This document shows positions 27,154 to 57,906 of a stretch of 64,000 bases of DNA, piece after piece. Within the stretch, counting starts at the first letter, position 1; each line of letters opens with the position of its first letter. Origin of the DNA: Octopus vulgaris. Its lineage: Eukaryota. The stretch covers positions 106,206,001-106,270,000 of the forward strand of contig OX597821.1 in NCBI GenBank assembly GCA_951406725.2. Reading direction: 5' to 3'. The position numbers and the translations under genes were made by a program. The notes beneath the pieces were generated by a model. That model ran no database searches, was not told the origin of the DNA, and worked only from the letters and a program-made list of their open reading frames with translations.

Positions 27154-28182
27154 ATGTCAGATATATTTACAATTCGATCGTTAATGAAAAATACCATGAC
27201 GCCAAATGGCTTGCCGGTTATAACACACCGCAAAAAAATTCGGGACACTTGTTTATATAAATATTTTAAAAGTGTGCAAAACTGTTACGCCCTCGTGAAT
27301 ATTAAAATGAATTTAAAAATTTGGCGTTTATATAACATAAAGGAACGTATTTTATATATCATCCGCCTATTAGTAATAATTTTGTACGCTTTGGATTGCA
27401 TTCGTGTGATGAGCTTTTTACCTGTGGCTTACAGCAGACATGCTCCATCAGTAGTAATTTTTAATTGCTTAATTGTTGGTGACAATATTATTTCTTTGTA
27501 CACTTTATTTGATAGGGCTTTTCAAGCGGACATGTCCATAGATATCATAAAAGAATTTACTGAATTCAAATCATTGGAATGCGATCTCAAATACCGTGAG
27601 AGGATGTACAAAAAAACTCTCTGTAAGCAATATCTCTCCATGATAATGTTCGTTATTATTTCTTTAATAATGGAGGTACTGTGTCCTGTTGTTTTAAACA
27701 GGACGAATTTTTTGCTTAAGATATACCTCTATCCTCTATCGTTGGACAGTACTGAACACATACCTATACTTGTGTTAAGATACTGTATTCATTTCGTTGA
27801 GATTGTTCCTTACTATTTTTACATATCCGCATCAAATGTAATGCATGATCTTATTTTGAAAGAGTTGAGGCTATCGTCTTCCTATTTAAAACGGAATAAG
27901 ACCAAAGACGACTCAGATTTCAAAAAGTATAATATAGATATCGATATTCTATGCAGCCATTTTCAAAAAGTGTGCAACCTACTCCGTTTAACAAATAAAA
28001 TGACACAAATGCAATCATTTTTGACAATACTGAGCAGTAAAATTTGTATCTTCAGCCTTCTTTATGGGTGGAGAAATGGATTATCTGGTGTGCTGGAATA
28101 TAAATATGTAATAATATTAAGTCTTGGAAAGATTTGCCATTCTGCGTATATTTTTCTGCGAGGTTTCCAGATACATTATATG
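27154..28182 (+). CDS. Gustatory-receptor-like (GR/GRL) gene, alternative large N-terminal exon A (343 codons, predicted TM1-TM6)
   Basis: Intact hydrophobic ORF paralogous to 31322 and 49077 (shared motifs DT.L.KY, LD.IR, FK.LE, KQY, YLYPL, HFQ.(V/L)C.LL.L.N). Similarity stops at ATG|GTATGT (phase-0 donor at 28183), the same position as in both paralogs. The ORF tail VCMTILF... is read-through into the intron. Confidence 0.9.
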
Positions 28183-28474
28183 GTATGTATGACAATATTA
28201 TTTCATCCCTATTTACTTTAATACGATTTCAAGTTCTTCATTTATTTAAGCAATTTTTCACTTGTAAGTGAAAAAATAAATAAACAAAAAATAAAAGAAA
28301 TAAAACGATTAATCCTGTTATTCTATTAAATAGAAATTTTATTTGTGCCAGCTGCTATAGGGTCATACATATATATGTGCGTATGCATGCATATGCAGAC
28401 ACATATATATGTATTTGTATATAGATATAAATATATATCTGTTTATCAACTTATTATATATATATTTTAGTCTT

Positions 28475-28875
28475 TTATTCTTTTACTTGTTTCAGTCATT
28501 TGATTGCGGCCATGCTGGAGCATTGCCTTCAGTCGCAGAAATCGACTTATTCTTTGGGTTCTTTTGCCGAACCGCTATGTTACGGGGACGTAAACCCACC
28601 TGTATCGGTTGTCAAGCGATGTTGGGGGACAAAGACAGACACACTAACATAAACACATACATACACATATGTGTGTGTGTGTGTGTCTGTGAGTGTGTGT
28701 GTGTGTGTGTGTACATATATACGACGGTCTTCTTTCAATTTCCGTCTACCAAATCCACTCACAAAGCTGGTCGGCCTAAGGCTATAGTAGAAGACACTTG
28801 CCCAAGATGTCACGCAGTGAGACTGAACCCGGAACCATGTGGCTGGTAAGCAAGCTACTTACCACATAGCCACTC
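28475..28875 (-). mobile_element. SINE family A
   Basis: Reverse complement of the family A head and core. Confidence 0.85.
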
Positions 28876-31321
28876 ATATGACTGTGTGTATGTATGTGTA
28901 TATATATATATATATATATATATATATATATATATTCATACATATATATATACATACATATATACACATTTAGACATATACATACATCCACACACATACT
29001 CATATATGTATGCCTACACACATACAGTCACAGATATATACAGAGATATATAATTATATATAAACGTGCGTGTGTATGTGTAATTTGTATGTATGTATAT
29101 ATATATATATATATATATATATATATATATATATATATCTGTATTGTGTTAGTAAGTAGAGGCACTTACGCATTTATGCATGTGTGCGTGTATGTGTATA
29201 TAAACATATATATATGTATGCATGTATGTATGTATATATATATATATATACATAGAGAGAGAGAGAGAGAGTGAGAGACAGGTGGAATGTTGGATGGCCG
29301 GTCAGACTGATGGATGGATTGACAGAGAAAGAGAAAGAGAAAGAGACTGGTGTGAAGAGATTGATTGATTTATGAAATGATAGATAGATGGATGGTAGAT
29401 ATTACGTTTAGCATTATGCGCTAAGCAGTTTTAAGTAATTCTGCCTCCATTAGTATTTCCAAATTATCTAATATAATAACTTCATCGTTCAAATTAATGG
29501 ATGCGGATTAGCACGTTAGATTGCTGGAGTGACTTAATTATCGAAAGAAACTCGCGAATTCTTTAACACAATACCACCTCTCAAGCAATGAAAAGAGATA
29601 TAGTTAATTTTTATGCAATCTGGATTATTTCAATTATTGTTTTATAAACGATATCTCGCACGATTATTGTTCTTGACCTTTCTTCAATTTATCAATAGTA
29701 TCTTAAAAGCATATTCTTATTTTATGCCTCCCGTTCGCAATAAATCTATAGATATATCGCTTATATCAATTATGCGTTCATTGTTTTGTTTTAATGCCGC
29801 TGTTTCGTAACATGCTTCATGAAATTTAAGCTAGTATTGATTTTCGTCATAGATATACACATAGGAATATATATATATATATATATATATATATAGATAG
29901 ATAGATAGATAGATAGATAGATAGATAGATAGATAGATAGATAGATAGATATTGATATAGATATATTCACACAGACATATATGCTTGTATGCATGCAAAC
30001 GTGTACGATTTTATATATATGTATATATATATATATATATATATATATATACATCAGTATAAGCATATACATCACACGTACATATACATATATATAGATA
30101 TATGTATGAATTTATATATGTACACACACACACACAAACACATAACATATATATATATATATATATATATATATATATATATATATATTGTATGTATGTA
30201 TATATATATATATATATATATATATATATATATATATATATATATATATATATATATATATGTACACATCAATATACGTATATACATACACGTACATATA
30301 TATGAATTTATATATGTACACATCCATATATATATATATACGTGTGTATGTGTGTTTGACTTTGTCTTTGTGGGGGCAGTGTATGAATATAGAAAATAAG
30401 ATTAGATGAACTCGGTAGTGTGAATGCTGATTAGATATAAAAAAAAAAAAAGGTGTATAAAATATTTGTGATACATCTCGATCGAAACGGATGAGGAATG
30501 GATTTTAAGTAATAGTTACATTAGGAAGGAAAAGCACTTAACAAATCTATTCAATGTTTTTTTTAAGCTGCAGCGAAAACCGTGCATTGTAGAATTTGAT
30601 GGAGGCGGCAATCACAAAACAAAGTTTACAATCACAAAACAAAGTTTTTGCCCAATTAATGTATCGCTCCGTCAAGCAAACAGAGGCATCCATTACTAAG
30701 CGCACGCAAGCACAGACTTTTTCACATACACGCACGCATGCATACGCACATACATACATACATACATACATACATACATACATACATACATACATACATA
30801 CATACATACATATGTACATACATACATATATATATATATATATATATATATATATATATATATATATACATATGTACATACATACATATATATATATATA
30901 TATATATATATATATATATATATATATATATATACAAAACAATGATTTTAGGATGGAAATTATAAATATTAATATTGCTATATCTATATTTATATCGGTA
31001 TATCCATAAAACAACCCCGTAAAAACTCCCTAGTCAGCAAAATTCATTAGACAATAGCTAACATAACAAAACAGGAGCTTTATCTGCATCCCATTAACTT
31101 TACCATAAACGAATTTAAATGATACATACATACATACATATACATATATATATATATATATATATATATATATGTGTGTGTGTGTGTGTGTATATATATA
31201 TATATATATATATATATATATATATATATATATATCTAATCAGTGATATACTCACAGTCAGTATCTCAGTAATATTGCACCGTTAGATATTCCCTAAATT
31301 AAAAAAGAGAAAGAAAAAGAC

Positions 31322-56372: not shown

Positions 56373-56489
56373 GTAGGTGTAAGCTTAAATTTATATCCAA
56401 ACATCTTAAACCAACGGTTAAGATATAAAACACAAACACATACGTAAATATATACAAGTGCTTAGATACATACATGCATGCATTTTCTT

Positions 56490-57030
56490 TTATTCTCTTA
56501 CTTATGTCAGTCATCTGACTGCAGCCATGCTGGAGCACCGCCTTTAGTCGAACAAATCGATCCCAGGATTTATTCTTTCTAAGCCAAGTACTTATTCTAT
56601 CGGTCTTTTTTGCCGAACTGCTAGTTGATGATGACGAATATACACACCAACATCGGTTATCAGGCGATGGTGGTGGGGTGAAACACAGACACAAATAGCA
56701 AATACATACACACACACACATATATATCTATGTCTATATCTATATCTATCTATCTATATTCTATCTATCTATCTATCTATCTATCTATCTATCTATCTAT
56801 CTATCTATCTATCTATCTCTCTCTCTCTATATATATATATATATGTATATATAAATATATATACATACGTATATATAAATATATATATATGTATGTATGT
56901 ATGTATGTATGTATGTATGTATGTATGTATGTATGTATGTATGTATGTAAGTAAGTAAGTATGGATGTACGTATAAGACGGGCTTCTTTCAGTTTCCGTC
57001 TACCAAATCCACTCACAAGACTTTGGCCGA
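56490..57030 (-). mobile_element. SINE family A (5'-truncated, expanded internal microsatellite)
   Basis: gcagccatgctggagcaccgcctttagtcg tail and cagtttccgtctaccaaatccactcacaag core. Confidence 0.8.
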
Positions 57031-57843
57031 GAATTATAAATTTCAAATTCATAATTCTCGAAATATATGCCGATGAAGGAAGTAAATACTTCTAACTCTA
57101 ATCAGGAAACGCGTACATAATTAATCGTAGACTGTTTGATTTAATTATTTTTTCTTCTTTTTGCCTATGTGAGTTACAAATATTGTTGTCTGTGGAGTTG
57201 TATTTGTAGTTAAAAGAATTAGATGTATTTGGCTGCTTTTTCTATAATATAAAAAAATACTTTTTGAAAACGTTTTTAACGATAATGTCTTTTTTTTCCA
57301 AAAACTGAGGCTACTTGGTAAAATTTATTGATTATCACATTAATAATTCTTTACCCTATATATATGATGAGTATATATATATATACACAAGAAGGAATCG
57401 CCCATGTCAAATTTATATGTATAGATATAGATAGATAAATAGATAAATATATATATATATACATGTGTGTATATGTTCATATATGTGTTTGTGTGTGGTG
57501 GGGTATATTTACATTGCTTGAAGACGTATCACTCATTAGACAATACTTTCGATTTCAGAATCAGGCAGCTTTTTGTGTTTTTGTGCGATACCCTTATTGC
57601 CAGGATCTTTTTAACACCACCATATGTGTGTGCGTTTGTGTGTGTGTGTCTGTGTGTGGTGTGTATAGATAGATAACTAGATAGATAGATAGATAGATAG
57701 ATAGATAGATAGATAGATAGATAGATAGATAGATAGATAGATAGATAGATAGATAGATAGACAGACACACACGTGCCTGTGTGTGGTAGTGAGGTGTTCA
57801 CTTGCAACGAGAAAATTCTGATAAACATTTTACTTTATTCTAG

Positions 57844-57906
57844 ATTCTGGGAATCATGTTGACTTACGCCATCGTCGTTTTACAAACCAAGAAGGAAACA
57901 ACTTAG
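57844..57906 (+). CDS. GR-like gene, shared terminal exon 4 (ILGIMLTYAIVVLQTKKETT*)
   Basis: ctttattctag| acceptor, phase 0. TYAIVVLQ matches the TYhhhhhQ(F) TM7 signature of the GR/OR superfamily. TAG at 57904-57906; possible ATTAAA signal at 57934-57939. Confidence 0.92.
   Translation: MLGIMLTYAIVVLQTKKETT

Follow-up and report, generated by a model that had tools for sequence, protein, structure and literature searches.

A putative Gr39a-style GR-like receptor locus in Octopus vulgaris, with three large exons predicted to share one three-exon tail

In the Drosophila gene Gr39a, large exons that encode six transmembrane segments (TM), each with its own start codon and donor, are spliced to three small exons that encode TM7. 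The first acceptor lies at the small exons, and exon gain and loss are described (PMC2204066; the papers cited here were accessible in part, and what is said of them applies to those parts). The same source names an Anopheles array, AgGr9a-n, and in Blattella germanica Gr60a-m several long first exons run into three common short final exons (PMC6175461). Gustatory receptor (GR)-like proteins, or GRLs, are known in Mollusca, where they show a TM7 motif and introns conserved toward the 3' end (PMC7746228), and each of two spionid annelids has a pair of them (PMC11730519). Here we describe a comparable unit in a stretch of 64 kb of Octopus vulgaris DNA (the window; C8:106,206,001-106,270,000, where C8 denotes contig OX597821.1). 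Three paralogous exons of about 1 kb, A, B and C, precede a single set of small exons, c1 to c3, which we call the tail. From its sequence the unit is most likely one complex locus in the style of Gr39a, coding for GR-like ligand-gated channels of the seven-transmembrane ion channel (7TMIC) superfamily, their channel activity being putative.

The features of the unit are collected in Table 1. The original prediction, made from the letters of the window, had placed all three large exons correctly, with their lengths, a homologous phase-0 donor and spliced products of 416, 403 and 415 amino acids (A, B and C, respectively). Each of the three is open from its ATG to a TG|GTATGT donor, and the small exons have pyrimidine-rich AG acceptors and GTAAGC and GTAGGT donors. 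Global identity between the variable parts is 47% (A-B), 42% (A-C) and 38% (B-C), and the three form one clade with a support of 99 in a quick tree. The ratio of nonsynonymous to synonymous substitution (dN/dS) among them is 0.28-0.36, with dS near saturation; B gave 0.36 against A and 0.30 against C. The 69-, 90- and 63-nt exons are, as had been proposed, the sole tail present, since tblastn, a scan with a position-specific scoring matrix (PSSM) and a hidden Markov model (HMM) found neither a second copy of the small exons nor a fourth variable exon in the 64-kb window. A private tail for each exon was rejected, as none follows A or B by tblastn or by the PSSM scan. That scan took in all of the approximately 89,000 AG sites in a gap-free span of 854 kb around the unit (106.136-106.990 Mb), and separated real exons (z at least 5.5) from noise (z at most 3.4). 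Over the same span a phase-0 GT donor stands at the homologous codon in 37 of 38 intact paralogous exons, which excludes an origin as chance open reading frames (ORFs). The 38th (L044:5289-6296) has the GC donor GCAAGT, and the database protein P0032 is joined at that donor.

Table 1. Exons and 3' signal of the window unit (positions count from the first nucleotide of the window)
Feature	Position	Strand	Length	Residues	Remarks
Variable exon A	27154..28182	+	1029 nt	343	N-terminus to TM6 end; phase-0 donor at 28183
Variable exon B	31322..32311	+	990 nt	330	phase-0 donor at 32312; tail join predicted
Variable exon C	49077..50102	+	1026 nt	342	phase-0 donor at 50103
Shared exon c1	53604..53672	+	69 nt	23	intracellular TM6 end / anchor region
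Shared exon c2	56283..56372	+	90 nt	30	S7a and hairpin
Shared terminal coding exon c3	57844..57906	+	63 nt with stop		pore helix S7b, TYAIVVLQT
Candidate polyadenylation signal ATTAAA	57934..57939	+			sole AATAAA or ATTAAA within 600 nt past the stop

Gene models from two other octopuses join large exons to this tail. The O. sinensis protein XP_036361081.1 carries exon A (255 of 258 amino acids), and c1-c2-c3 follow it at precisely the junction that had been predicted. In O. bimaculoides, two models end in tails that are each identical at 71 of 71 residues: XP_052825838.1, where the tail is joined to an A ortholog (196/217 amino acids), and A0A0L8IHE2, where it is joined to a C ortholog (73/86 amino acids). 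The last small exon, c3, is present in the database proteins P0005, P0006, P0014 and P0015. Exon C matches a protein labelled Octopus vulgaris at 97/97 residues, and the O. vulgaris model CAI9727297.1 leaves that exon after 97 codons, giving a fragment of 170 amino acids. That fragment and the ORF calls in Logan, which are unspliced, agree with the expectation that annotation would fail here; RefSeq, on the other hand, recovered some of the joins under the label 'uncharacterized'. The family was missed by annotation because gene finders collapse the arrays or splice them wrongly and single exons escape Pfam. Related units show the same arrangement. Isoforms of O. sinensis LOC118764548 place three variable parts on one c1/c2 (50-88% in the variable parts, 54/54 residues in the tail), and gene models of the unit at 106.53-106.56 Mb place two variable parts on one tail. 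P0022 and P0032 are both exons of one unit on its tail, P0028 joins an exon at 106.390 Mb to a tail 61 kb away with six exons between them in this assembly, and P0059 also joins a distal exon across its neighbours.

The fold was examined with an AlphaFold2 model of exon C, which lacks TM7 (12-row alignment, pLDDT 78, pTM 0.70). Compared with 48,161 chains, its top eight matches were all insect odorant receptors (OR), Orco or GRs, in line with the 7TMIC fold that had been foreseen, and the next, unrelated, match had a Z of 7.6. The best match was Orco (8z9a; Z 19.1, root mean square deviation 3.9 Å, 299 residues aligned), and the values for MhOR5 and Gr64a were Z 18.7 (4.4 Å, 288 aligned) and Z 12.9 (4.4 Å, 280 aligned), respectively. 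In Orco the match stops at residue 395 of 463 and in MhOR5 at 401 of 478; what is left uncovered is about as long as the 73 residues that the small exons encode. Readings as G-protein-coupled receptors (GPCRs) and as pentameric channels of the nicotinic acetylcholine receptor (nAChR) or Cys-loop type were rejected, the first on these top matches and the second because, in addition, the model is all-helical.

Profiles extended the likeness into the tail. Profile A3, built from nine Octopus and eight distant spliced proteins, found Gr64a at E 1e-9 and Orco at 1e-8, with insect receptors making up 11 of its 12 hits, and it aligns the tail, including c2, with the C-terminus and TM7 of Gr64a. An HMM made from the eight distant GR-like proteins scored 82-92 bits on the spliced translations as one continuous match and 30-34 bits on the exons alone. 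The spliced paralogs P0022, P0036, P0028, P0032 and P0163 lie above the cut-off of the Pfam family 7tm_7. There are three phase-0 introns past TM6, and the exon sizes of 69 and 90 nt are constant across the units of the cluster, and we liken the introns to those of GRs and GRLs by number and phase. The TM7 motif had been given as ending in QF; in the window it reads TYAIVVLQT (TYhhhhhQT), so that T, Y, five hydrophobic residues and Q are kept and the final F of insects is replaced by T. The last residue is T in 14 of 16 c3 exons of the cluster, the remaining ones having QR and QN, and divergence at this position has been found in functional members (PMC7746228). Sequence and models together indicate that the unit encodes GR-like members of the 7TMIC superfamily. 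UniProt has attached the automatic names 'Gustatory receptor' and 'Odorant receptor' to two O. bimaculoides fragments.

The reading that we prefer, with a probability of about 0.75, combines the shared tail with variable exons that are first exons under their own promoters. Each variable exon (TM1-6) would begin a transcript from its own promoter and would lack a strong acceptor; its donor would then be spliced to the first acceptor downstream, at 53604, and any other variable exons in between would leave as intron. The best AG near the ATG of the 38 variable exons had a median of 2.25 bits, compared to 2.95 bits in random windows (p = 0.80), and the median for tail-exon acceptors was 10.7 bits (leave-one-out). 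Own-promoter first exons fit these values because the acceptors of the variable exons are no better than background. In the 400 nt upstream of the variable exons ATTAAT occurs in 19 of 28 lineages (p 2.6e-7, uncorrected and against a background confounded by repeats). We do not claim a common promoter motif, since the k-mer test gave only AT-rich words on that confounded background. The ATTAAT and TAAT-rich words are possibly homeodomain sites.

The anchor of insect GRs is made up of S7a together with the inner portions of S4-S6, and their pore is lined by S7b (PMC12635824). By analogy with the insect structures and from a tetramer model, the variable exon would supply the ligand pocket, and the tail, with TM7, most of the assembly surface and the pore helix. 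Isoforms would differ in tuning, share the same gating and probably co-assemble, and new receptors would arise by duplication of a single 1-kb exon. When P0006 residues 110-331 were modelled in four copies, the score was 0.66 (pLDDT 68), compared with 0.00 for the best control, and it may reflect memory of solved GR/OR tetramers. The runs of this model share at least 88% of contacts, and 33 of the 37 named interface residues are encoded by the tail. Among solved pairs 21 of 30 came up to the mark set for this score, and among single chains none of 23; by group, it was reached by 17/29 from eukaryotes, 7/16 from animals and 1/7 without a solved relative. The single-sequence AlphaFold2 model of P0006 had a pLDDT of 37 and was not used.

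Several results weigh against the reading preferred here. Foldseek ranked insect receptors first (probability 1.0, best E 2e-3) and gave no match at E of 0.001 or below. A match to Pfam 7tm_7 (PF08395) did not appear on the six separate exons, P0005 or P0006, and P0014 scored 21.3 bits, below the cut-off of 26.6; these three are the database proteins of the unit, and all are N-terminally incomplete. The joins in XP_036361081.1, XP_052825838.1 and A0A0L8IHE2 are automatic gene models. The prediction that the tail is shared thus stands in gene models for A and for the C ortholog, but a join of B to the tail was found in none of the database records searched. Reads of c1 and its flanks were checked in four runs, and no junction of A, B or C to c1 was seen at c1 in these; three of the runs, X1, X2 and X3, gave no match to c1, though this does not prove that it is absent from them. 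The search of sequencing runs returned no holder of the searched sequence that is recorded as RNA. Poly(A)-like hexamers occur 3' of the donors of A and C, with AATAAA runs 90-120 nt past the donor of A, and weak AG sites lie at -11 of A (4.4 bits) and -43 of C (5.4 bits).

The missing B join and the AATAAA runs past A would suit a locus in which only some exons use the tail, B (or A) being an orphan or giving a truncated six-helix product by intronic polyadenylation. So would a variable exon at C8:106,755,497 (L065:5497-6495) that is intact, sits on a long branch and has a good donor, but for which no same-strand tail was found downstream in the scanned region. We consider this highly improbable. 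B is intact, has the dN/dS of 0.30-0.36 given above and keeps the homologous donor, it has no poly(A)-like hexamer within 600 nt past that donor, and A is joined in the models of two species.

The fourth run, X5, yielded an RNA contig of 261 nt at depth 2 that spans c1 from acceptor to donor and runs on into c2, with one mismatch in 30 letters at the join, so that the junction 53672>56283 is seen as proposed. The 5' end of this contig has a unique match to an exon at C8:106,196,383-106,196,447 (L109:383-447) with the donor AAG|GTAAGA, which lies 9.55 kb before the window, 37 kb before A and 63 kb before c1. This leader is spliced directly to c1 and skips A, B and C, which their lack of strong acceptors would explain. 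It is non-coding in the frame of the tail, with an in-frame TAG three codons before its donor, and it is not recognisable as a decayed variable exon, there being no HMM hit upstream of A. The contig means that the c1 acceptor is real and can be reached by a donor that lies beyond A, B and C. The leader may belong to a sterile upstream transcript or be a shared leader; given its presence a common promoter exists in some form, which is a further point on the opposing side.

The leader allows a different account of the same proteins, in which one upstream promoter and a non-coding leader serve the whole unit and the 1-kb exons are mutually exclusive internal cassettes, as in Dscam. The transcript does span A, B and C from the leader to c1, and the weak AG sites near the ATGs of A and C could serve as cassette acceptors. 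However, the acceptors before the 38 variable exons do not rise above background, the X5 contig (single, and at depth 2) skipped every candidate cassette, and the leader has no paralog in the 854 kb, though paralogous leaders could have diverged. Cassettes therefore seem unlikely to us, and first exons with their own promoters are retained as the working model.

Chemical sensing is, given the family, the role we would expect with some confidence. These could instead be channels for light, heat, internal metabolites or development, with the architecture unchanged, and such roles are known in the superfamily for LITE-1/GUR-3, Gr28b(D), Gr43a and NvecGrl1 (PMC7746228, PMC11526382, PMC6175461). 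The low apparent expression in the runs found and the T in place of the F that is the gate residue in insects would be consistent with such a role. The tandem expansion, the approximately one-third of copies that are broken and the relaxed dN/dS, which is 0.5-0.8 for the majority of 25 closer pairs, resemble birth-and-death chemoreceptor families. Birth-and-death evolution with expansion and broken copies is typical of such families, and we regard a role outside external chemoreception as less likely.

The locus had been described as one of three variable exons, which holds for the window unit, but this is the first unit of a far larger cluster of about 1.05 Mb. The 854 kb hold 38 intact and 18 broken variable exons with 17 tail sets, in 14 of which all three exons were detected. 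On the plus strand the units have 3 (the window), 1, 1, 8, 5 (4 intact), 2 and 17 variable exons per tail. The unit of 17 covers 157 kb, and its 12 intact exons form a clade with a support of 100 in the quick tree. A unit with a single exon is on the minus strand, and after these come nine minus-strand units of approximately 22-25 kb with one or two exons each. This nine-unit stretch (C8:106.79-106.98 Mb) is mostly near-identical tandem repeats of a unit of two exons plus tail, with many copies broken, and its units may be a recent segmental duplication or partly an assembly artefact. Beyond it, genome searches placed another 31 copies on the minus strand between 106.995 and 107.24 Mb; 17 of them have uninterrupted full-length matches. 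Coverage between 106.99 and 107.30 Mb comprised 40 kb of gap sequence within the large array and 20 kb past the last array. No tail was found among the 31 copies by protein or DNA search, nor in the 40 kb of sampled gaps, so approximately 32 copies over about 265 kb, a span covered in part, probably share the tail at 106.974 Mb. Four more variable exons precede a tail at 107.281-107.284 Mb. In total the cluster has about 91 variable-exon copies, of which about 59 look intact, and about 18 tails.

In the quick tree a clade of its own is formed by the exons of each of three units, namely that of the window, the one with 17 exons and the one with two, and those of several other units interleave, so that both exon and whole-unit duplication must have occurred. 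In one unit (C8:106,298,297-106,352,631) an intron of 50 kb separates c1 from c2 and no c3 could be detected ahead of the unit that follows, and two inverted partial variable-exon copies lie inside the plus-strand array at C8:106,416,100-106,425,400. A genome search with PF08395 gave 14 matches, 13 of them short and weak and one a real second locus. This is a shared-tail locus on the minus strand at C8:24.49-24.55 Mb, with six variable exons, a c1 of 72 nt and a c2 of 90 nt; isoforms from O. sinensis also carry two alternative versions of the last exon there.

The window also contains mobile elements. An uninterrupted ORF of 1235 amino acids from a retrotransposon without long terminal repeats (window:12056-15763, plus strand; RVT_1, 103 bits) has a second element, a partial one, behind it at 15856-17212. 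The interval between B and C holds fragments of a Tc1/mariner-type transposase (33563-34138, minus strand) and of a Pif1 (Helitron-like) helicase (44832-45371, minus strand). A tRNA-like repeat head was recognised by eye at 55655-55760 on the plus strand and is likely a short interspersed element; ARAGORN calls no tRNA in the window.

The splicing design and the receptor superfamily are already known; for the lineage and the scale no report was found. The literature searched (supplements and most of the subscription literature lay outside its scope) contained no paper on this cluster, on a cephalopod GR-like expansion or on shared-tail arrays in molluscs, and none on four of the accessions. 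The cluster is not described in the accessible parts of PMC11526382, PMC12635824, PMC6408891, PMC11886862, PMC5850775, PMC11730519 and PMC4244043. Cephalopod chemical sensing is explained there mainly by up to 26 chemotactile receptors (CRs), with few expanded chemosensory GPCRs (PMC11526382, PMC11886862), and where PMC11886862 speaks of 'gustatory receptors' in the contact sensing of cephalopods, the papers it cites are on CRs.

A bolder reading, which we hold to be less likely than not, is that octopuses have a second, larger ionotropic chemoreceptor repertoire of at least about 60 GR-like channels. For the most part these would be encoded as interchangeable pocket exons, up to about 30 per gene, on common pore modules, and promoter choice within an array would set the tuning of each sensory neuron. 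As part of the same reading, molluscs may have the shared-tail design in common, and it may predate the insects. If this is true, octopus smell or taste could be explained at the molecular level, and about 30 pocket exons per gene would exceed any insect array that we found reported in the accessible sources. The approximately 60 intact channels, each with an exact exon model, can directly be proposed as candidates when expression is mapped and ligands are screened, and with the proposed split between a variable pocket and a constant pore, the effect of the pocket on tuning can be followed while the gate stays the same.

Outside Octopus, the octopus profile matches proteins of scallop, oyster, limpet and periwinkle. 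A permissive pattern for ORFs that end just past TM6 was found in 49 of 119 distant hits, some of them false. The gene models P0049 (Saccostrea oyster) and P0045 (Littorina periwinkle) have two variable-type parts before one TM7 tail, and these two models hint at similar arrays in bivalves and gastropods. Most of the distant hits keep QF or something similar in the TM7 motif, in contrast to the QT, QN and QR of octopus.

Compared to the CRs, which are pentameric derivatives of nAChRs and number up to 26 in O. bimaculoides (PMC11526382), the octopus GR-like set is likewise a candidate expansion of ionotropic chemoreceptors. It differs in consisting of unrelated, putative 7TM channels of the tetramer type, about 60 of them intact. 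Vertebrate clustered protocadherins and UGT1 also have tandem large variable first exons spliced to common constant exons; their proteins are unrelated to those of the octopus, and we liken the tandem-exon layout only, not a promoter element or stochastic choice. The nearest likeness is to Gr39a (also Gr28b, Gr23a, Or46a and Or69a), with which the octopus unit has in common tandem six-TM exons before a single three-exon tail. The octopus genes belong to a mollusc lineage, their identity to solved insect GR/OR chains is 6-14% in structural alignments, their introns are 3.5-25 kb long and their motif ends in QT. Whereas the design is found in 5 of approximately 120 loci in Drosophila, it is that of most units in the 1-Mb octopus cluster, and compared to the 13 receptors of the largest cockroach array in the accessible sources, one octopus array has 17 copies (12 intact) and another probably about 32.

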